The position numbers and the translations under genes were made by a program. A DNA stretch of 64,000 nucleotides, taken from IMG/VR virus record IMGVR_UViG_2974628344_000001, positions 60,329-124,328 of that record; one strand, written 5' to 3'. The notes below the pieces were generated by a model. That model saw nothing but the letters and a program-made list of their open reading frames with translations. It was not told the origin of the DNA and made no database searches. This DNA comes from Streptomyces virus Wollford (lineage: Duplodnaviria; Heunggongvirae; Uroviricota; Caudoviricetes). The first letter of the stretch is position 1; each line of letters opens with the position of its first letter. Positions 1-37,607 of this stretch are shown in pieces.

Positions 1-2470
1 CCGAACCGATATCATCACCAATACGAATCTCGTAGCGGACATGATTGGGGACTATCCTTACCACTCTGGTCTTGACCTTCTTCCTAAGCCGAAGAACGAA
101 GATCCGCAGGCTTTGCTCGAAAAGAAGGCTCGTGCCGGTCTAAAGGCTCTTGGTCTTGATGGGGACAAGAAGTACACTGAACGTCTCGAAGAAGAGCTAA
201 GCATTATCAAGCAGAAGGACTTCTCTGTCTACTTCATCATTGTAGGCAACATGATCAAGTGGGCTAAGGATCAGGGCATTCGTGTTGGTCCTGGCCGTGG
301 TTCTGCCGCCGGAAGCCTTGTGTGCTACACGCTGGGAATTACAGAAGTAGATCCGATCAAGTGGGGCCTGCTGTTTTTCCGATTTATTGACATTGGCCGT
401 GATGACTGGCCTGACATTGACGTTGACTTTGCTGACCGTGATCGTGATAAGGTCAAGCAGTATCTTCGTCGTCAGTACAAGCACGTGGCTGAGATTGCTA
501 CGATTAACAAGTTTCAGGGTAAGGCTGCCGTAAAGGCTGCTGCTCGTGTATTCCGAGTCCCGGTGGGAGAGGTCAACTCTGCTACAAAGGATGTAGACGC
601 ACCTGCCGATAAGCCTGACCTGTTCTTTGATCTATTTAGCAAGTCAGACAAGGGAAAGAAGTTCACCGAGAAGTATCCAGAGGTTCTTGAGCTTGCTCAC
701 CATCTCAGTGGACGTATTCAGTCAATGGGTAAGCACCCTGCTGGTATCGTAGTGGCGAAGGAAGAAATTTCTCGTTACGCACCAATCGAAACGGCAAAGG
801 ACCCCAACGACGCAAATGCGCCACGACTTCCTATCGTTGCTTATGACATGAACGAGGCGGCGGACATTGGGTTGATTAAGCTTGATGCCCTAGGTCTAAA
901 GACTCTGACTGTTATCGATGATACCCTTGCGATGATCAAGGATCGTACTGGTAAGGAAATCGATCTACATAAGATCAATCTGGAAGACCGAAGTGTATAC
1001 CAGATGCTTGCAGATGGTTACACCCTCGGTGTATTCCAGGCAGAAGGAAACACCTTCACCAAGTGGATTCTTGAGGCCGGTGCTAGTGAGTTCAACGATC
1101 TAGTCATTGGTACCTCAATCGCCCGTCCTGGTCCTCTAAACACCGTTGGTGTTAACTATAAGGCTAGGAAGAAGGGTAAGGAAAAGGTTGAGTATGACCA
1201 CTTCATCATGAAGAGGCACACGGAGGAAACTCTTGGTCTTATCATTTATCAGGAGCAGGTCATGCTTGCGATGACTGAGCTTGCCGGAATGTCAATGACA
1301 GAGGCAAACAAGGTCCGTAAGATCATCGGTAAGAAGCGAGATGCAAAGGAATTCGAGCAGTACAAGGACAAGTTCATTGAGGGGGCCAGCACGAAGGTTC
1401 ATCGTTCTGTAGCTGAAAAGCTATGGCACGATTTCGAGCAGCACGCAGGTTACTCATTTAACAAGTCTCACGCGGTTGTGTACTCCATGATCACGTACTG
1501 GACTGCTTGGTTGAAGAAGCATTATCCTCTGGAGTTTATGTGCGCTCTGCTCAGGAACGAAAAGGACACAAGTAAGAAGACTTCAAAGCTGACTGACTAT
1601 CTGATTGAGGCTAAGCGCCTGGGGATCAAGATCCTTCTTCCTCACGTAAACGCTTCTAAGGAGGAATTCAGCATTGAAGAAAATGCAATCAGGTTCGGTA
1701 TCACCAACGTAAAGTACATTCGTGGAAACACGGGTAAGAGGCTTCTGGAGCATGCTCCGTACGCCAACTACGCGGCGCTCTACGAAAAGGTCAATGAGAA
1801 GGGCAGTGGACTAACGTCCCGAGTCCTCACAGCCTTGAACGCGATTGGTGGAGCTGCATTCGAGGACAATCCTCGTACTGGACATGAGCGGGACAACTTC
1901 TACGAATATTTGATGATTCCTGCATTCGGGACTCAGAAGGTAATTCCTAGGGTCATGAATCAGTTCAGGACTCTGGACGAATATTCTGGCACCGGAGCCT
2001 TCGCTGTTCTTGCAATGGTCAAGGATGTTCGTAGAGGTGAAGGATGGGCGCGGGTGGAAATGGTTGATGAAACAGGTACGGCTGGTGTGTTCACCGATAA
2101 GGAAACTCCTATCGAAGCAGGCCAGATGTATGCTATCCTGGTATCTGACAACCGAGTCCACAGGTATGCTACGATGGATGAGTTGATCAGCAAGATCGAC
2201 ACACCGTTTGTCGAGTATCTGTATGCTAAGGACTACAGTGATATTCCTTCTGGAATGTACAAGGTTCTTAGCTTCCAACCATACAAGACAAAGGCAGGAA
2301 AGATGATGGCCTACACTGTTCTAGCTGATTCTGAAAAGGGTCTGCTTCCAGTGATGGCTTTCCCAACAACATTCCACAAGGCTTATGGTAAGTGCAAGCC
2401 CGGTGCAGTGATTGATCCTGTATTGAAGCAGACTCAAGAGGGCTCATTCTTTTTCGACAATATCCTATAA
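1..2470 (+). CDS. dnaE: DNA polymerase III alpha subunit (DnaE-like), C-terminal portion; 5' end cut by window start
   Basis: ORF open to window edge; translation contains Pol III alpha core motifs (GPGRGSAAGSLVCYTLGIT...WPDIDVDFAD) and C-terminal OB-like region. Confidence 0.85.
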   Translation, partial: RTDIITNTNLVADMIGDYPYHSGLDLLPKPKNEDPQALLEKKARAGLKALGLDGDKKYTERLEEELSIIKQKDFSVYFIIVGNMIKWAKDQGIRVGPGRGSAAGSLVCYTLGITEVDPIKWGLLFFRFIDIGRDDWPDIDVDFADRDRDKVKQYLRRQYKHVAEIATINKFQGKAAVKAAARVFRVPVGEVNSATKDVDAPADKPDLFFDLFSKSDKGKKFTEKYPEVLELAHHLSGRIQSMGKHPAGIVVAKEEISRYAPIETAKDPNDANAPRLPIVAYDMNEAADIGLIKLDALGLKTLTVIDDTLAMIKDRTGKEIDLHKINLEDRSVYQMLADGYTLGVFQAEGNTFTKWILEAGASEFNDLVIGTSIARPGPLNTVGVNYKARKKGKEKVEYDHFIMKRHTEETLGLIIYQEQVMLAMTELAGMSMTEANKVRKIIGKKRDAKEFEQYKDKFIEGASTKVHRSVAEKLWHDFEQHAGYSFNKSHAVVYSMITYWTAWLKKHYPLEFMCALLRNEKDTSKKTSKLTDYLIEAKRLGIKILLPHVNASKEEFSIEENAIRFGITNVKYIRGNTGKRLLEHAPYANYAALYEKVNEKGSGLTSRVLTALNAIGGAAFEDNPRTGHERDNFYEYLMIPAFGTQKVIPRVMNQFRTLDEYSGTGAFAVLAMVKDVRRGEGWARVEMVDETGTAGVFTDKETPIEAGQMYAILVSDNRVHRYATMDELISKIDTPFVEYLYAKDYSDIPSGMYKVLSFQPYKTKAGKMMAYTVLADSEKGLLPVMAFPTTFHKAYGKCKPGAVIDPVLKQTQEGSFFFDNIL

Positions 2471-2478
2471 GGAGTACA

Positions 2479-2676
2479 ATGGAAGAGGCAGTAAGGGCGG
2501 AGGATCTTCTTCGCCTACTGCTCCTTGTAAAGGGTGATATTGTAATCACCGCTGAGGAGCTTGGACGCGCAGTGAATGATCACACGCGCTATTCAGTGGG
2601 TCTAAGTCATGATCCGCTTAAGAAGGAATTCACATTTCACCTGATTGGAAACGATGAACGACCTGTCAATGACTGA
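2479..2676 (+). CDS. hypothetical protein
   Basis: 65-aa co-oriented ORF tightly packed between polymerase and MazG-like gene. Confidence 0.3.
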   Translation: MEEAVRAEDLLRLLLLVKGDIVITAEELGRAVNDHTRYSVGLSHDPLKKEFTFHLIGNDERPVND

Positions 2677-11573: not shown

Positions 11574-12191
11574 ATGTCAACTACAGCAATGTTGCTCATC
11601 GTTGATCGTTCTGGTAGCATGGCTAGCATCCAGATGGAAGCAGAGCAAGCGCTCAATGACTTCCTGTCCAGTCAGAAGGAACTACCTGGACGATGTGGTA
11701 TTCATGTGGTACAGTTCGATGGACAGGTTGAAGATCTGTTTGGACCGCTGCCTCTGGCTGATGCACCTGAGATCAAGATTGTACCTCGCGGAATGACTGC
11801 ACTACTTGACGCAATTGGCAAGTCTGTGACAGAATTCAGACAGACAATGGACCATTTGCCGGTGGATAAGCGACTTGTCGTTATTCTCACCGATGGTCTT
11901 GAGAATGTTTCTCAGGAGTGGGAAGTAAATGCAGTCAATAAGCTGATCAATGAGTCAAGGGAACTTGGTTACGAGTTCATCTTCCTTGCTGCAAATCAGG
12001 ATGCGATTGCAACCGGTGCTCAGATGGGCATTCCAACAGCTTCAAGTCTAACCTTTGCGGCAAGTCCTGCTGGTGTACGTGGTCTTGGTAAGACAATGGA
12101 CGCGTATGTCACCAATTATCGCGCAGGCAAGGCTGCTCAGTTTACTGATCAAGATCGGCAGACAGCGAGCGGCTTGACAGACGAAGACTGA
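11574..12191 (+). CDS. von Willebrand factor A (vWA) domain protein
   Basis: LLIVDRSGSM MIDAS motif, TDGLEN, 205 aa. Confidence 0.7.
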   Translation: MSTTAMLLIVDRSGSMASIQMEAEQALNDFLSSQKELPGRCGIHVVQFDGQVEDLFGPLPLADAPEIKIVPRGMTALLDAIGKSVTEFRQTMDHLPVDKRLVVILTDGLENVSQEWEVNAVNKLINESRELGYEFIFLAANQDAIATGAQMGIPTASSLTFAASPAGVRGLGKTMDAYVTNYRAGKAAQFTDQDRQTASGLTDED

Positions 12192-12297
12192 TCTGTTAAA
12201 GTAGTAAATGTGGGTCGAAGGGCTCGGTCGGTTATCTTACATTGGAATCAGATCGCCATTAAATTGGCACCCGACTCCCAACACTTATCCACATTAT

Positions 12298-12371
12298 GCG
12301 GATGTAGTTTAATGGTAAAACCCCTGCCTTCCAAGCAGACGACGGGAGTTCGATTCTCCTCATCCGCTCCA
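12298..12371 (+). tRNA. tRNA-Gly (UCC), CCA encoded
   Basis: cloverleaf by hand: acceptor gcggatg/catccgc, loop cuUCCaa, T-arm gggagTTCGATTctcct, 3' cca. Confidence 0.8.
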
Positions 12372-12500
12372 TAGACCCGGATTCGCCTCTGTCATCTTTT
12401 GTGATATGCTACCGGCGAGATGTAGTCTAGAATGCATCTCGGTATCTGACCCGGATACGTTAAGAGAGCGCCAGGCTCTACAACTGGCAGGGTAACACAT

Positions 12501-12573
12501 TCCCCATTGGTGTAACTGGCAACACAGCAGACTCTGACTCTGTCGTTCCTAGTTCGAATCTAGGGTGGGGAGC
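12501..12573 (+). tRNA. tRNA-Gln (CUG)
   Basis: acceptor tccccat/gtgggga, anticodon loop cuCUGac, T-arm cctagTTCGAATctagg. Confidence 0.6.
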
Positions 12574-12804
12574 TGGTCCGACTTTACGATATCGGCGGAA
12601 ATAATCGAATCGGAACGCACGCAATAACCTAGGTAAAGGTGCGGAATGAGGAGAGGAAATATGCGGGAAGCGATGGGTAAAACCTCCTCGGACCGACAAT
12701 TTGCGGCCTAGTTGCAGGCCAGAATAGAACAATGGATTTCCCTGGGTTAGGCGCTTACGCCGTTCATTGTTTGAATTCAAAGGGGTCACGCCCAAGCAAC
12801 TTAT

Positions 12805-12876
12805 GCGTCCTTAGTGTAATGGTTTGCACACGAGCTTCCAAACCTCTTAGAGTGGGTTCGATTCCTACAGGACGTG
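12805..12876 (+). tRNA. tRNA-Trp (CCA)-like, weak anticodon stem
   Basis: acceptor gcgtcct/aggacgt, loop uuCCAaa, T-arm gtgggTTCGATTcctac; only 3 bp of anticodon stem pair. Confidence 0.45.
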
Positions 12877-12883
12877 CTTTGAA

Positions 12884-12916
12884 TAAAACCCCGGTGTCTA
12901 ATAGCACCGGGGTTTA
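12884..12916 (+). terminator. Rho-independent terminator
   Basis: aaaaccccggtg tctaata gcaccggggttt. Confidence 0.65.
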
Positions 12917-12930
12917 GCATTAGGAGACAA

Positions 12931-13377
12931 ATGGGATACTACACTAGATATCAATTAGAAATCGTAAGAGACAGTGAAAGAGCCAACGATCTCATTGACG
13001 ATGCTGAGAATGTCACAATTCCTGGAAGCTACGATCTGAATCTATCTAGATTGATCAATGGCAATTACGATACCATGAAGTGGTATGACTGGGAAAAGGA
13101 CATGGCATCTCTATCAAGAGATTGGCCAAACGTCCTCTTTGCTCTAAGTGGAGAGGGCGAAGAGCCTGGTGATCTCTGGAAGGCTTGGGTAAGAAACGGT
13201 AAGGTCATTAAGGTTCAAGGTAGAATCGTCTACGATGTACCCGACCTTGACAAGGTGCTTCCAGTCAACGATACTGTGGAAAAGGAATACAAGGCACAGA
13301 AGAAGGCAGAGCTTCAAGCCACCATTATGGATCTTGAGAACAGGTTGGCGAAGCTAAAGGGACTATCTAAGGATTGA
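12931..13377 (+). CDS. hypothetical protein (C-terminal coiled coil)
   Basis: 148-aa ORF after terminator. Confidence 0.45.
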   Translation: MGYYTRYQLEIVRDSERANDLIDDAENVTIPGSYDLNLSRLINGNYDTMKWYDWEKDMASLSRDWPNVLFALSGEGEEPGDLWKAWVRNGKVIKVQGRIVYDVPDLDKVLPVNDTVEKEYKAQKKAELQATIMDLENRLAKLKGLSKD

Positions 13378-13609: not shown

Positions 13610-14605
13610 GTGAAGGATATGGTCGATAGACCACCCACAGAACAAATGCCTTCCAGAAAGAGAAGAGAAGGCATTGACCTAGAGGCCATTGTTGCAGCCG
13701 TTAATGCACAAGTTATTGCAGAACGAGATGTTATTTCTATTCCTGGCCCTAAAGGTGAAAAGGGTGATAAAGGTGAAGACGGTCCGCAAGGAGAATCAGG
13801 AAAGTCTGCCTGGAAAGAATGGATTGACGCAGGCAATTCTGGAGATGCCAGAGAGTTTCTGAATGCTCTCACTGGACCAATGGGTCCTCAAGGAATCGAA
13901 GGTCCGCAAGGACCACGCGGTGAACCTGGAAGAGATGGAACATCTGTAAAGGGTGAAACAGGCCCAAAGGGTGAAAGAGGAGATCCAGGACCAGTTGGAA
14001 TGACTGGACCTCAAGGTGTCCAGGGCCCTCCAGGCGAATCAATCATTGGTCCAAAGGGAGATCAGGGGCCGCAAGGAATTCAAGGCGTGCCTGGTCCTGT
14101 AGGCCCAGAAGGATCACAGGGTATTCAAGGACCAATTGGACCTCCGGGACCCAAAGGTGACCAAGGAATTCAGGGCCTAAAGGGCGATAAGGGAGATTCC
14201 GGCATTCAGGGAATTCCTGGCCCACAAGGCTTGAAGGGTGATCAAGGTATAGCTGGCCCAAGTGGATCAAAGGGTGACAAGGGTGACCCTGCTACTGTAT
14301 ACTCAGATGGACAGGCAAGAACGAATGTCAAGATCATCACCGGAAAGGTGTTGACAGATGCCACCGGAAAGTTTACAGTAGATCTATCAGGTGCTGGACT
14401 TACAACGATCTATTCAGCTACGGCGACTGCTGCTGCAACGGATGCGACAGCGGCCGGTGTTGGAATGGTCAGCATTCAGACCTTGACAACTACCTCTCTA
14501 GTAGGTACAGTAGTAAGAGCATCACAACTAAGTGTTCTTGGTATCCTATCTGTAACACTTGTTGGATCTGGAAGAAATGTCTACTACACCGTAATAGGAA
14601 GTTGA
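13610..14605 (+). CDS. collagen-like (Gly-X-Y repeat) structural protein, probable tail fibre
   Basis: about 70 uninterrupted G-X-Y triplets ([19 protein letters not shown]...) followed by a non-collagen Thr/Ala-rich C-terminal domain. Confidence 0.85.
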
Positions 14606-14675
14606 CACGATCTGCTGGGTCTGCTAAGATTAAGTACAACGCAGCAAGCAAACATCACACATTGGTTGCTGCTAT

Positions 14676-14747
14676 CAGGCACGGGGAAGATGGTAATCCG
14701 TTGGCTTTGGAAGCCTAAGACACTCGGTTCGATTCCGAGGTGCCTGA
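14676..14747 (+). tRNA. tRNA-Pro (UGG)
   Basis: acceptor caggcac/gtgcctg, loop uuUGGaa, T-arm ctcggTTCGATTccgag. Confidence 0.65.
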
Positions 14748-14771
14748 CCGAATGCAGTTCCTAGGGGCTGC

Positions 14772-14850
14772 ACGTCCTGCGGGCGCGATGATTGGAATGG
14801 TAAGGTGACGTCCTGCCATCAAGGTTCAACTCCTTGCGCGTCGCGAACTG
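14772..14850 (+). tRNA. tRNA-like element (T-arm caaggTTCAACTccttg); acceptor pairing not resolved by eye
   Basis: canonical T-loop at 14823-14833 inside ORF-free stretch between two tRNAs. Confidence 0.3.
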
Positions 14851-14876
14851 GGTGTGATACGATAACTCACAACAAC

Positions 14877-14947
14877 TGGTACTAGTGTATGGGGAAGCAC
14901 GAGACATTTGGGATGTTTTAGGCGGAGTTCGAGTCTCCGGTACCGGA
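14877..14947 (+). tRNA. tRNA-Pro (UGG) second copy (G37)
   Basis: acceptor ctggtac/gtaccgg, anticodon stem agaca/tgttt, loop uuUGGga, T-arm cggagTTCGAGTctccg. Confidence 0.55.
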
Positions 14948-14949
14948 CA

Positions 14950-15015
14950 ATTTGGGTCGAATGGGATACGGTTATCACTCAATGGATAATAGGTTCGATT
15001 CCTATCGCTGGGTTC
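14950..15015 (+). tRNA. tRNA-like element (T-arm ataggTTCGATTcctat), 5' half not resolved
   Basis: T-loop at 14993-15003; no matching acceptor found by eye. Confidence 0.25.
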
Positions 15016-15110
15016 GCCTGGTAGATACAAGTCATCTGAGATTGTGTGTGGTAGGATGACATTAAGGACTACACACTCTCCGTTCCCGCCTTATACCTAA
15101 AGGAATTACC

Positions 15111-15632
15111 ATGACAGTACTTCTGAGAACGATTCATGGCTCTCATTTGTATGGCCTAGCTCATGCAGATTCCGACAAAGACATTTACGAAGTAATTGCT
15201 ACCAGTCGGACTAAGCGTAAGCGAAACATTAAGCAAACCATTTCTGATGGAGTTGACAAGACAGTAGTCGATATGTCAACATTTATGAGAATGGTTGATG
15301 AATGCGTACCTCAAGCACTTGAAGCGCTATGGACGCCGGTAGCTGAGATCGACAAGATCCACGAATTCCGGACACAATATCGAGTGAATCGCGCCAAGAT
15401 GAAAGATGTGTACGTACGAACTGCCCTTAACTTTGCTAAGGGTGATGGGGTAAAGCAGAAGAAGCACGCAGTGCGATTGCTGCTGAATCTTGGTCACACT
15501 TTGGAGTTTGGAAAGTTCAATCCTCGATTGGATGCAATGGATAAGATCATTATCAATGCATCTGTCGGAGACGCGGGAAAGTATGATGCCGTGTTCGACG
15601 CTCTAATTGATGAGGTCGGCCGGTGGATATGA
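15111..15632 (+). CDS. small Pol-beta-superfamily nucleotidyltransferase (putative)
   Basis: N-terminal hGSHLYGLAHADSDKDIY = GS-x9-13-DxD nucleotidyltransferase signature; 173 aa. Confidence 0.45.
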   Translation: MTVLLRTIHGSHLYGLAHADSDKDIYEVIATSRTKRKRNIKQTISDGVDKTVVDMSTFMRMVDECVPQALEALWTPVAEIDKIHEFRTQYRVNRAKMKDVYVRTALNFAKGDGVKQKKHAVRLLLNLGHTLEFGKFNPRLDAMDKIIINASVGDAGKYDAVFDALIDEVGRWI

Positions 15633-15641
15633 TCCCACCAC

Positions 15642-15718
15642 TGGGGCGTATACCCTCTGTCTGATAAACAGTTGAAAGGTTAAGTGGTCACATGTGGGTT
15701 CAACTCCCACCGTCCCAA
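15642..15718 (+). tRNA. tRNA-like (possible Ile GAU), atypical D region
   Basis: acceptor tggggcg/cgtccca, stem-loop ctgt-cuGAUaa-acag, T-arm gtgggTTCAACTcccac; D arm too short, extra 22 nt before T arm. Confidence 0.35.
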
Positions 15719-20839: not shown

Positions 20840-21060
20840 CTTTGAGGGTCGAATGATTATCGGTTATCTGTCTATGAAACAGACTGAAACACGGTTCGAA
20901 TCCGTGGATTGCTTTGGCGCTAGGTTTACGGTCGATATCAACAACTTATCCTCATACAACTTAATTCGGGCCGAAGAAGTTCGATTATCTTACACTGCAA
21001 ATATAAGATCGATCTTCACCAACTTGCCCGATCTTTTCATTTCTACGGAAGGATCAAAGG
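20840..21060 (+). ncRNA. candidate structured ncRNA (Y-RNA/YrlA-like?) upstream of Ro60 gene
   Basis: 220 nt with no convincing ORF; contains tRNA-like T-arm cacggTTCGAATccgtg (20888-20905) without full cloverleaf; track ORF 20853..21083 is low-complexity. Confidence 0.3.
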
Positions 21061-21431: not shown

Positions 21432-23060
21432 ATGTCCAACGCACTAACTAATGCCGCAAAGGCAACCAACAAGACTTCTCAGTCAATGAAGGCCAAGGAT
21501 GGACAGGTCAAGAACAACGCTGGTGGATTCGTCTTCCAGGTTTCTGATCAGTCACGCCTGGAGCGCTTCTTGATTCTAGGAACTGATGGAGGAACGTATT
21601 ACGTCTCTGAGGTTAACCATACTCAGTCAAACGTGAACTTCCTCAATGAGTTCATTGCTCGTGATGAGGCTAATGTGCTGAACACAATCGTTGATGTATC
21701 TGTCAATGGTCGTGCGTACAAGCAGTCTCCAGCCCTATTTGCTCTGGCTTCTGTCATTGTCAACGGCAAGGACAAGCAGGCAGTTAAGGCTGTATTCAAC
21801 AAGGTCGTAAGGACTGCTACTCATCTCTACGAGGTGGTTAACTATCTTAACGAGCTTGGTGGATGGGGTCGTGCAAAGCGTGAGATCGTAGCTGGTTGGT
21901 TCGATAAGGAAGCTGATAAGCTTGCTTATCAGGCAGTCAAGTATCGTTCCCGTACCTTTGGTGGAAACACCTGGACGCTACGAGACGTAATGCGAAAGGC
22001 TCACCCACAGAACGTCGACACGTCTGTTGCTGATTTCGTTCTAGGCAAGGAGCGCGATGCTACTGATAACCTTCGGGTTATTGAGGGCTTCAAGCTTATG
22101 CAGAAGGCGGAGTCTGTAGAGAGTGTTCATGCAGTTCTGCGGGATTACGAGATGCTTTCTTGGGAGACAATTCCAACGCAGTTCCTCACGGATGCTAGTG
22201 TTTGGAAGCGACTCTTCGCAAATGGTCAGCTTCGTGGTCAGGCTGCTGTTCGAAACATTACTCGCCTTGCGCGCATTGGTGCTTTCAAGGACATGCAGTT
22301 TGCTGCAAGCTTCGCCAGTCAGCTAACGAATGAGGAAATGATTCGTCAGTCTCGACTGCACCCAATTAACTTCCTCAACGCTGCTGTTGTTTATGCAGAA
22401 GGTCAGGTGGATCGAAAGAACATCTGGGGCGAACGTGTAAAGAACTGGGAGACTGAGGCCGTTATTGTCGATGCAATCGATGAGGCGTTCCACAAGTCAT
22501 TCAAGACCATTGAGCCAGCCGGTAAGAGGACGATGCTAGCCATCGACTGTTCCGGATCAATGAGTACACAGGCTATGGGTCTCGACCTAAGCTGTGCACA
22601 AGTTGCTGGTGCTATGGCGATGACCATTGCACGTACTGAGCCAGCTCACATCCTTCGTGGCTTTTCAAGCGCGGGATACAACTGGCGTGATAGCGGTATG
22701 GCCGAACTAAAGATTACTGGTCGCAGCTCTCTTGCTCAGGCAATGAGTGCAATGCGTGCGGTAAACTGGGGCGGTACAGACTGTTCACTGCCAATGACGT
22801 GGGCTCTTGAGAATGGTGTAGAAGTTGACACCTTCGTTGTTCTAACGGATAACGAAACATGGGCTGGAAAGATTCACCCATTCCAGGCTCTCAAGAACTA
22901 TCGTAAGAGCACAGGTATTGATGCACGACTTGCTGTTCTAGGAGTCGCTTCAACTCCATTCACTATTGCTGACCCAAGTGATAGTGGAATGATGGACTTC
23001 GTTGGCTTTGATAGCAACGCTCCACGTGTTCTAGCAGATTTTTCCGCCGGTCGAATCTGA
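21432..23060 (+). CDS. rsr: Ro60/Rsr orthologue (TROVE domain + C-terminal vWA)
   Basis: N-terminal NNAGGFVFQVSDQSRLERFLILGTDGGTYY TROVE signature; C-terminal LAIDCSGSM MIDAS (vWA); 542 aa. Confidence 0.85.
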   Translation: MSNALTNAAKATNKTSQSMKAKDGQVKNNAGGFVFQVSDQSRLERFLILGTDGGTYYVSEVNHTQSNVNFLNEFIARDEANVLNTIVDVSVNGRAYKQSPALFALASVIVNGKDKQAVKAVFNKVVRTATHLYEVVNYLNELGGWGRAKREIVAGWFDKEADKLAYQAVKYRSRTFGGNTWTLRDVMRKAHPQNVDTSVADFVLGKERDATDNLRVIEGFKLMQKAESVESVHAVLRDYEMLSWETIPTQFLTDASVWKRLFANGQLRGQAAVRNITRLARIGAFKDMQFAASFASQLTNEEMIRQSRLHPINFLNAAVVYAEGQVDRKNIWGERVKNWETEAVIVDAIDEAFHKSFKTIEPAGKRTMLAIDCSGSMSTQAMGLDLSCAQVAGAMAMTIARTEPAHILRGFSSAGYNWRDSGMAELKITGRSSLAQAMSAMRAVNWGGTDCSLPMTWALENGVEVDTFVVLTDNETWAGKIHPFQALKNYRKSTGIDARLAVLGVASTPFTIADPSDSGMMDFVGFDSNAPRVLADFSAGRI

Positions 23061-27814: not shown

Positions 27815-27941
27815 AGGAATGTAGTTTAATGGCAAAACCGCGAAATGCAATGTCGAACGAGAAGTGCTGCTGAGCTAAAGGCGGGTCTTCTACTAGTAGA
27901 TAACAGAGTAGCAGTTGTGGGTTCGAATCCCGCCATTCCGC
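27815..27941 (+). tRNA. tRNA-like with about 55-nt insertion between D arm and T arm (interrupted or pseudo tRNA)
   Basis: 5' part aggaatg-ta-gttt-aatggca-aaac matches tRNA-Gly 12298 D-arm; 3' part gtgggTTCGAATcccgc-cattccg; 75 nt intervening. Confidence 0.3.
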
Positions 27942-37419: not shown

Positions 37420-37607
37420 CAACAGGCAAAGTCATACCTTAACTAGCTAGGGGTCCTGGAGAAAAGTGACTAGCTGAGCGGGAAGCGATTCCCCTTCTGG
37501 GCTGACAACCGCGACTGTCAATCCGTGCGCGGCACACGGAAAAGCTATCGAGCTTACCCATGAGGGCGACGGTCCAAAATGCGTAAACTCGATAGCATGC
37601 CCCATCT
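37420..37607 (+). ncRNA. structured non-coding spacer (unknown RNA) with 9-bp and 5-bp perfect stems
   Basis: no ORF; gctatcgag...ctcgatagc inverted repeat (37543-37595), ccgcg...cgcgg stem, gggaAGCGATTcccc T-arm-like hairpin. Confidence 0.3.

Follow-up and report, generated by a model that had tools for sequence, protein, structure and literature searches.

A conserved four-helix RNA family in the tRNA arrays of large Streptomyces phages, with a putative self-pairing loop and no support for a Y RNA identity

Introduction

The large tRNA arrays of actinophages, comprising dozens of tRNAs, are routinely annotated as tRNA genes and empty spacers. What such a spacer may hold is asked here for Streptomyces phage Wofford (NC_048722.1; cluster BE, Stanwilliamsviridae). 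In a 64-kb part of its genome, hereafter the window, the 231 nt between the genes for tRNA-Gln(ctg) and tRNA-Trp(cca) bear no feature in the deposited annotation. From the sequence, this spacer had been proposed to contain a second Y RNA, whose GGUCCGA/UCGGACC stem would be bound by the phage Ro orthologue gp125, a reasonable prior because the phage does encode such an orthologue. Here, we present evidence that positions 12575-12699 on the plus strand (window positions, obtained by subtracting 60328 from record positions) probably specify an RNA of another kind, that is, an undescribed small non-coding RNA that is confined to tRNA arrays, folds into four helices, would be released by tRNA processing and may dimerise through one of its loops.

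Results

A four-helix RNA in the tRNA-Gln/tRNA-Trp spacer

The two sequences at the base of the original prediction are both present: GGTCCGA occupies 12575-12581 and its exact complement TCGGACC follows 113 nt further on, at 12688-12694. Only the positions of the longer words around them were off by 1-3 nt, the 10-mer lying at 12573-12582 and the 11-mer at 12687-12697. A minus-strand open reading frame (ORF) at 12478-12795, set aside earlier as spurious, can be called mechanically but runs into tRNA-Gln, and no such ORF is annotated in this spacer in any of the 20 relatives for which the annotation was read. A 12-mer, gcgggaagcgat, is indeed shared with 37478-37489 (plus strand), yet the link drawn from it to a structured spacer at 37463 is at chance level (blastn-short E = 0.36), two other matches being as good. 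The interval originally singled out holds two units, namely the element at 12575-12699 and a separate structured segment at 12700-12804.

The folding energy is unexceptional both for the whole spacer (z = -0.39) and for the element (z = -0.98 against shuffled sequences). The heptamer is equally unremarkable in number, with three copies of GGTCCGA on the plus strand of the window and four on the minus strand versus about four expected per strand. We nevertheless consider the pairing real because of the comparative evidence. This evidence was obtained with a covariance model, R1, built from nine distant Loccivirinae-type members of the family, none of which contains GGUCCGA. These nine seed sequences align nearly free of gaps (alignment A3, made with MAFFT alone) and the structure was written by hand on this alignment. 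R1 matches Wofford over the full length of the model (positions 1-138) at 12575-12699, with 57.1 bits and an E value of 5.7e-11. It is the sole match in the window at E ≤ 10, with none of the 43 tRNAs of the window matched, and each member locus contains a single copy.

In the seed alignment, 92.2% of the cells are paired and both-sided changes occur at 16 of 27 pairs. When the partners were moved by one to three columns, only 28-44% of the cells remained paired and the covariation value, 0.52 in register, was 0.03-0.08; none of 500 shuffles matched the values of the seed alignment. The 27 distinct members give the same picture (91.9% of cells paired, 22 of 27 pairs compensatory, slid controls 26-40%) in an alignment, A5, that was fitted to R1 and hence favours pairing, while the seed alignment is independent of model fitting. 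When the columns of a piecewise MAFFT alignment were scanned automatically for pairs, helix P3 alone emerged, because P1 and P4 were misaligned.

The element thus delimited by R1 and covariation is a structured RNA gene of about 125 nt. Its ends form P1, an acceptor-like closing stem of 7 bp in which GGUCCGA (12575-12581) pairs with UCGGACC (12688-12694). The closing stem of the original prediction is therefore real, as a helix of a conserved RNA: it is 95.7% paired in the 27 members, with both-sided changes at five of the seven pairs and only C5-G and G6-C invariant. In Genie2, for instance, it reads GGAACGU/ACGUUCC through multiple compensatory changes. P2, placed by the model alignment at 12587-12612 in the position of a D arm, pairs CGAU (12587-12590) with AUCG (12609-12612) around an A-rich loop and is spelled CAGA/UYUG in other clades. 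P3 (12616-12643) pairs CGCAC (12616-12620) with GUGCG (12639-12643) and closes an 18-nt loop, GCAAUAACCUAGGUAAAG (12621-12638). It is paired in 100% of the 27 members, with compensatory changes at all five pairs, and an alignment of 12 phages contains the variants CUCAC/GUGAG and CACAC/GUGUG. P4, also placed by the model alignment, lies at 12672-12686 in the position of a T arm and has a short form in Wofford, GA(U)GG - GUAAAA - CCUC. In other clades it is longer, a conserved UAU bulge separating 5 proximal from 6 distal base pairs, and compensatory changes occur along the whole helix; Bmoc carries a compensating change of an A-U pair to U-A, and Anedea has the whole helix replaced by GUCC-UACG-GGAC. 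The 5-bp helix P4a stands one base from the 3' strand of P1, giving a stack of 7 and 5 bp that resembles an acceptor/T minihelix. The order of the four helices around the junction is cloverleaf-like, with P2 and P3 in the positions of the D and anticodon arms. A 3' tail, G-ACA-A (12695-12699), takes the place of discriminator base and CCA, as seen by comparison with other clades.

A number of candidates were dropped. The long-range pairings UUUAC/GUAAA and AUCG/CGAU of a first RNAalifold run are broken in relatives, namely Bmoc, Anedea and Genie2, and a pairing of GUUGGGAA with UUCCUGAC, taken from the minimum free energy (MFE) structure of Genie2, is likewise unkept in relatives. A CsrA-type sponge, suggested by many GGA motifs, and anti-Shine-Dalgarno mimicry by CCUCCU (12683-12688) were both abandoned on finding the motifs unconserved beyond the Wofford clade.

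Distribution of the family

Using blastn, the element was found in 48 phage records, all of Streptomyces phages. A weak partial match was obtained in Kenrey, a member of the subfamily Loccivirinae, where the element follows tRNA-Asn. Scanning IMG/VR and metagenomes for the loop motif yielded further, divergent members (L026, L028, L032, L041, L045, L046, L047, L050, L054, L057, L061 and L065). A scan of 185,579 bacterial and archaeal genomes for the loop pattern gave no match and hence no host-encoded counterpart with this loop; the family thus appears to be restricted to phages. Judged from these comparisons, the element is a member of a new, undescribed RNA family residing in the tRNA arrays of large Streptomyces phages (Stanwilliamsviridae).

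Its genomic position is as regular as its structure. The order tRNA-Gln(ctg) followed by the element is constant in all BE-cluster phages examined and recurs in L145, where the element abuts tRNA-Gln(ctg). In Wofford, G12575 lies 2 nt after the discriminator base (12572) of tRNA-Gln, and in L057 the element (287-422) sits between tRNAs at 424-495 and 214-286, at 0-1 nt from each. Contig L061 shows, besides its family member at 2235-2372, a weak second R1 match directly upstream of it (2399-2507, minus strand; 20.6 bits, E = 0.047), which could be a degenerate tandem copy.

In the 12-phage alignment, the segment from T12574 to A12699 (TGGTCCGA...CGGACCGACAA) is exactly missing from CeilingFan, Quaran19 and Starbow, with both flanks kept; Starbow is assigned to the species Streptomyces virus Karimac together with Karimac, which has the element. 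Such clean-edged presence/absence polymorphism, together with ends that form an inverted repeat, would also fit mobile DNA resembling a miniature inverted-repeat transposable element (MITE), were it not that there is one copy per genome (a second one was found in the window neither by blastn-short nor by nhmmer or the covariance model), that no target-site duplication is seen and that the terminal repeats do not keep their sequence but covary, as expected of strands that pair in RNA and not of sites bound by a transposase. The same locus could be read as a small protein gene, an ORF of 21 codons' worth of amino acids (21 aa) at 12646-12711 whose sixth codon, an in-frame ATG at 12661, is preceded by a Shine-Dalgarno-like GAGGAGAGG in a GGAG-rich stretch; neither the ATG nor the ORF is conserved in Jay2Jay, Genie2 and the Loccivirinae type. 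We regard a mobile DNA or a small protein as hardly tenable.

A palindromic loop maintained through three variants

The P3 loop has the 18-nt consensus RYAAUAA-CCWWGG-UAAAR. Its centre is a palindrome, ACCUAGGU in Wofford (12627-12634), recognised by comparing variants and proposed as the site of kissing-loop self-pairing. The core reads CCUAGG in Wofford, Elmer, Karimac and Kenrey and CCAUGG in others. In order to avoid circularity, IMG/VR was rescanned with any six bases allowed at the loop centre. This retrieved 21 contigs, all of them family members and all with perfect palindromes (CCATGG in 19, CCTAGG in 1 and CGTACG in 1), including one new member, L145, that scores 74.5 bits with R1 and has CGUACG at the loop centre. 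A looser scan with 10 free bases gave at least 71 new loci among the matches listed, all of which failed the P3-stem test. With the flanking A and U included, the three variants give 8-bp self-duplexes of -9.8 to -11.4 kcal/mol.

The loop variants can be set beside the composition of the genomes that carry them. The Wofford genome (133 kb) contains no CCATGG versus 29 expected and 23 copies of CCTAGG, and a 50-kb piece of Kenrey contains no CCATGG versus 10 expected; relatives with a CCAUGG loop have normal genomic CCATGG counts. As two clades lost their genomic CCATGG sites, purging of the site would have coincided with a palindrome-keeping double substitution in the loop. A single substitution would remove CCATGG, yet the double substitution that preserves the palindrome was taken both times, in Wofford and in Kenrey. 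An explanation at the DNA level is disfavoured, because it does not require symmetry at positions that tolerate change. Pairing between molecules is favoured, because adjacent bases cannot pair inside one loop. The simplest reading is that two copies of the loop pair with each other in a kissing-loop homodimer, which we infer because variation in the loop preserves palindromes.

Avoidance of palindromic sites extends beyond CCATGG. Wofford has no copy of CCATGG, AGGCCT, CCGCGG, CTCGAG, CTGCAG, GAGCTC, GCCGGC or GGATCC, with 24-29 expected per site, and the 50 kb of Kenrey have none of CCATGG, AGATCT, AGGCCT, AGTACT, CAGCTG and others. Close relatives (LukeCage, Jay2Jay and others) retain CCATGG. 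The missing 6-bp palindromes in Wofford and Kenrey bear a strong signature of restriction-site avoidance.

Relationship to tRNAs

Several features place the element close to tRNAs and to the tRNA-like domain of tmRNA: a 7-bp terminal stem, a discriminator-like base, CCA and a 5-bp helix beside the 3' strand, in addition to the cloverleaf-like four-helix order and a genomic slot between tRNAs. The tail is G-CCA in Genie2, L047, Anedea and L054, and A-CCA, the Loccivirinae type, in Kenrey, L045, L026, L032, L041, L057, L061 and L065, so that an acceptor-type stem with discriminator and CCA is found in most clades, with G-ACA as the Wofford form. An encoded CCA tail in most clades is notable because only 2 of 36 window tRNAs encode CCA. 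The element differs from a tRNA in its length of 125-140 nt, in an 18-nt 'anticodon' loop, a 17-nt 'D' loop and a 'variable' region of about 28 nt, in an extra nucleotide between P4 and P1 and, in Loccivirinae-type members, in a conserved 2-71 mismatch.

These similarities would also be expected of a decayed or intron-bearing tRNA gene, a pseudogene or unconventional tRNA without a function of its own, in which the 7-bp closing stem, the discriminator-like base, CCA and the tRNA slot are remnants and the 4-bp and 5-bp stems still occupy the D and anticodon positions. The window does contain another tRNA-like sequence with a 43-nt insertion (27815-27941, see below). A pseudogene, however, would not maintain four helices by compensatory change, nor would it keep an 18-nt loop near-invariant across two phage subfamilies and soil metagenomes. 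Moreover, no tRNA detector matches the element, all of its loops are expanded and the T- and D-loop motifs are missing. We therefore hold descent into a non-functional tRNA to be very unlikely.

Alternatively, the element could act in cis on a polycistronic tRNA transcript, as a processing or spacer element such as an entry site for RNase III or RNase E or a folding insulator. It is situated within a tRNA transcription unit with a promoter-like site upstream, conserved structured segments occur in neighbouring spacers as well, and some phages dispense with it, all of which agrees with a role of this kind. Against it, a processing signal needs no four-helix architecture of 125-140 nt, no encoded CCA tail and no palindrome kept through three variants, and since the tRNAs of L057 abut the element, RNase P alone suffices for processing. 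A cis-acting element is thus an unlikely explanation, although it is the one among the rivals that we would take most seriously.

The Y RNA reading and the Ro locus

The Ro orthologue gp125 is encoded at 21432-23060, on the same strand as the element, and Ro is encoded in 115 Streptomyces phage records. In favour of a second Y RNA, the 5' strand of P1 is identical to vertebrate GGUCCGA, and Ro reportedly makes most of its contacts with this strand (PMC4201824). Bacteria often possess more than one Y RNA, and bacterial Y RNAs mimic tRNAs (PMC4201824). The C-G and G-C pairs of P1 are invariant across the family and a terminal stem formed from the 5' and 3' ends, as expected of Y RNAs, is provided by P1 with the support of covariation.

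The sequence of this stem argues otherwise. In related phages the helix is kept by compensatory changes, whereas GGUCCGA is not: the heptamer is found only in the BE1/BE2 clade (14-16 of 27 members), and the strand reads GGAACGU in Genie2, GGACGC in L046/L047, CACACGC in Kenrey and L045, and CUCGU, UUCGG or UGACGU in others. Ro is 89% identical in Genie2 and 59% in Kenrey, yet the elements of both lack GGUCCGA, as do those of L045, L047, L145 and others. P1 thus varies while Ro is conserved, which makes the heptamer the spelling that one clade gives to a helix and not a conserved protein-binding sequence; in the window it occurs at chance frequency. P1 is, in addition, a perfect 7-bp duplex with neither a bulged C nor a UUGACC-type 3' strand. 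The CGAA or GNCGAAN0-1G motif, a mark of bacterial and phage Y RNAs (PMC4201824, PMC12135203), is absent near the 5' end, which reads GGUCCGACUUUACG (GUCCGAC), and an internal UCGAAU at 12605-12610 is not conserved in relatives. There is no T or D arm and no GGUUCGAAUCC-type arm. A scan with Y RNA and YrlA models had been suggested as a check; the Rfam models Y_RNA, sbRNA and YrlA (RF02553) gave no match at E ≤ 10, whether within 12350-12950 or at three homologous loci.

Genomic context points the same way. The 3' end of the element (12699) lies 8.7 kb upstream of Ro (21432) and the Kenrey element about 7 kb downstream of its Ro, whereas published YrlA RNAs are encoded within 4 kb of Ro (PMC4201824). 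Ro is retained by CeilingFan-type phages that lack the element, such as SaltySpitoon. In both Wofford and Kenrey, a better candidate stands beside the Ro gene. In Wofford, the stem-bulge RNA model RF01656 matches 20962-21034 (plus strand), 400 nt upstream of Ro, with 37.1 bits (gathering score 38) and an E value of 4.4e-5, a match that doubles as a positive control for the Rfam Y RNA scan. Stem-bulge RNAs of the RF01656 type are nematode homologues of Y RNAs. The sequence, unannotated in the record, reads UUCGGGCCGAAG...CAACUUGCCCGAUCU; its GCCGAAG fits GNCGAAN0-1G, and it forms a bulged GGGC[C]GA/UUGCCC helix with a U-rich tail and an MFE z-score of -2.8. It is likely, going by these features, to be a genuine Y RNA of Wofford. 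In Kenrey (L053), 13306-13366 matches the YrlA model RF02553 in part, over its tRNA-like domain with the T and D arms (28.4 bits, E = 0.003); the Ro gene (14063-15679) follows about 700 nt downstream. The occurrence of this YrlA-like match next to Ro suggests that a Ro-adjacent Y RNA is common to these phages.

Taken together, these results leave the identification of the element as a Ro-binding Y RNA not supported, and we consider a second Y RNA at this site very doubtful. What stands of the original prediction is a structured, conserved small RNA closed by a stem, in a phage that encodes Ro; the Y RNA label falls with the unconserved binding sequence, the missing bulge and CGAA motif and the lack of a match to any Rfam Y model.

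Neighbouring features

The element is flanked by tRNA-Gln(ctg) at 12501-12573 (plus strand; ARAGORN and Rfam) and, at the downstream end of the cluster, by tRNA-Trp(cca) at 12805-12877 (plus strand), in a window with 43 tRNA genes and a tmRNA gene. Upstream of tRNA-Gly, which begins at 12298, a consensus scan detected a promoter-like site, TTGACA-17-TAAAGT with a TG (12174-12202, plus strand; 10 of 12 matches). This site, a consensus match only, is a candidate for the putative start of a transcript spanning tRNA-Gly, tRNA-Gln, the element and tRNA-Trp. Just 3' of tRNA-Trp, a GC-rich hairpin, ACCCCGGUG...CACCGGGGU (12886-12917), probably ends the unit from tRNA-Gly to tRNA-Trp. The hairpin has the better U-run on the minus strand, where it explains the weak matches to Rfam small RNAs.

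The second segment of the spacer, 12700-12804 (plus strand), lies directly upstream of tRNA-Trp and is separately conserved. RNAalifold predicts 28 pairs, 11 of them compensatory, and the segment has no Rfam match. Phages without the first element keep it, and in Kenrey it stands before tRNA-Arg. It shows the hairpins GGCCU..AGGCC and AACAAUGGA..UUCAUUGUU, a motif GGGGUCACGCCC and an enclosing AGUUGC/GCAACU pairing. The 129-nt spacer between tRNA-Gly and tRNA-Gln (12372-12500, plus strand) contains a direct repeat, GACCCGGAU, and a long hairpin, CGAGAUG...CAUCUCG. It too is either there as a whole or missing, the corresponding spacer of Enygma, StarPlatinum and Daubenski being only 4-7 nt long, and may be another RNA module. 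The structured segment 12700-12804 and the unit-like behaviour of 12372-12500 indicate that these arrays hold several non-tRNA structured RNAs.

Elsewhere in the window, a 127-nt Rfam tRNA match (34.2 bits) at 27815-27941 (plus strand) is missing from the record annotation. ARAGORN, with introns allowed, reads it as tRNA-Arg(tct) with a 43-nt insertion; an interrupted tRNA and a tRNA-like element are the two readings of it.

Discussion

We favour the reading of 12575-12699 as a dimerising small RNA excised from the tRNA array, and propose the following mode of action. The element would be co-transcribed with the flanking tRNAs and its RNA released by tRNA-processing enzymes, as P1 stacked on P4 mimics an acceptor/T minihelix. 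RNase P would generate the 5' ends of both the element and the next tRNA, and the 3' side would be trimmed by RNase Z or exonucleases. The loop centre (ACCAUGGU, ACCUAGGU or ACGUACGU) of the released RNA would then pair with the same loop of a second molecule. As a best, though speculative, guess, the product could be a stable tRNA-shaped decoy or scaffold in the translation and RNA-repair toolkit of the phage, which comprises 45 tRNAs (the number annotated in the whole record), tmRNA, Ro with its Y RNA, RNA ligase and polynucleotide kinase. That it represents a new class of tRNA-shaped, processing-excised, homodimeric RNAs serving as decoy or scaffold, for example for a tRNA-directed defence enzyme of the host or a tRNA-binding factor, is a tentative idea, which we would sooner bet against than on.

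A number of observations weigh against the proposed structure, processing and dimerisation. P2 is the weakest helix (80.6% paired and two of four pairs changed on both sides in the 27 members), P4 is truncated and imperfect in Wofford, and the Wofford clade has G-ACA instead of CCA. The folding energy of the element is not better than that of shuffled sequences, and the larger alignment was fitted to the model. ARAGORN, with introns allowed and a lowered threshold, detected no tRNA gene in 21 members, the Rfam tRNA model RF00005 matched neither the element nor three homologues, and a T-loop (UUCRANY), a D-loop signature and a 7-nt anticodon loop are lacking. As R1 and the tRNA detectors do not link the element with tRNAs, the term 'tRNA-like' rests on topology, position and tail. 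The palindrome argument draws on three sequence variants only, and transfer between co-infecting phages could lower the number of independent events in the loop. The loop flanks (AAUAA...UAAA) were imposed by the search patterns, so that their invariance is partly a matter of ascertainment, and members with different loops would escape the loop-pattern scans. Finally, several BE2 phages lack the element, which is thus not essential in nature.

A spacer of the kind usually left empty in annotation thus contains the gene for a conserved RNA of four helices that shows strong covariation, has ends like those of a tRNA and has kept one loop self-complementary through three variants. It offers a directly testable case for RNA-RNA dimerisation in a phage small RNA. 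If the proposal is true, a decoy or scaffold dimer would act alongside phage Ro and Y RNA, tmRNA and RNA-repair genes, and in the arrays of these phages tRNAs would share mixed operons with several uncharacterised structured RNAs. The partner RNA of Ro in these phages is to be sought beside the Ro gene.

Among known systems, Y RNAs share with the element a length of about 100-130 nt, paired 5' and 3' ends and the presence of a phage Ro, and in the Wofford clade the 5' strand is even spelled GGUCCGA. YrlA is a tRNA mimic too (PMC4201824), but its tRNA-like domain is internal and its ends are the Ro-binding stem, whereas in the element it is the two ends that pair into the acceptor-like stem and carry the CCA tail.

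For the loop, the closest parallel is the dimerisation initiation site (DIS) of HIV-1, a hairpin that acts as a dimerisation signal through its palindromic loop. Both have a 6-nt palindrome in an apical loop, flanked by adenines, with variants that are always palindromes. They differ in that the element belongs to a phage small RNA and not to a viral genome, and in that its dimerisation is deduced from sequence variation alone.

The nearest relatives in kind are rnaC and rnaD of phage T4, small stable RNAs of unknown function (PMC9697503). In the T4 tRNA cluster, rnaD (119 nt) begins 1 nt after tRNA-Arg and rnaC (139 nt) 6 nt after rnaD. Both are co-processed with tRNAs. The element, too, is a non-tRNA gene of 100-140 nt within a few nucleotides of phage tRNAs (2 nt in Wofford, 0-1 nt in L057). 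rnaC differs from the family in carrying a genuine T arm (CCGGGUUCGAAUCCCGG), and neither rnaC nor rnaD is known to have a palindromic apical loop. As R1, run with filters off on the T4 tRNA cluster, gives at most 5.2 bits and thus no homology to rnaC or rnaD, the resemblance is one of analogy. It extends to size, to position in a tRNA cluster and to the likely mode of release, and in these respects the T4 stable RNAs C and D have a modern counterpart in the element.

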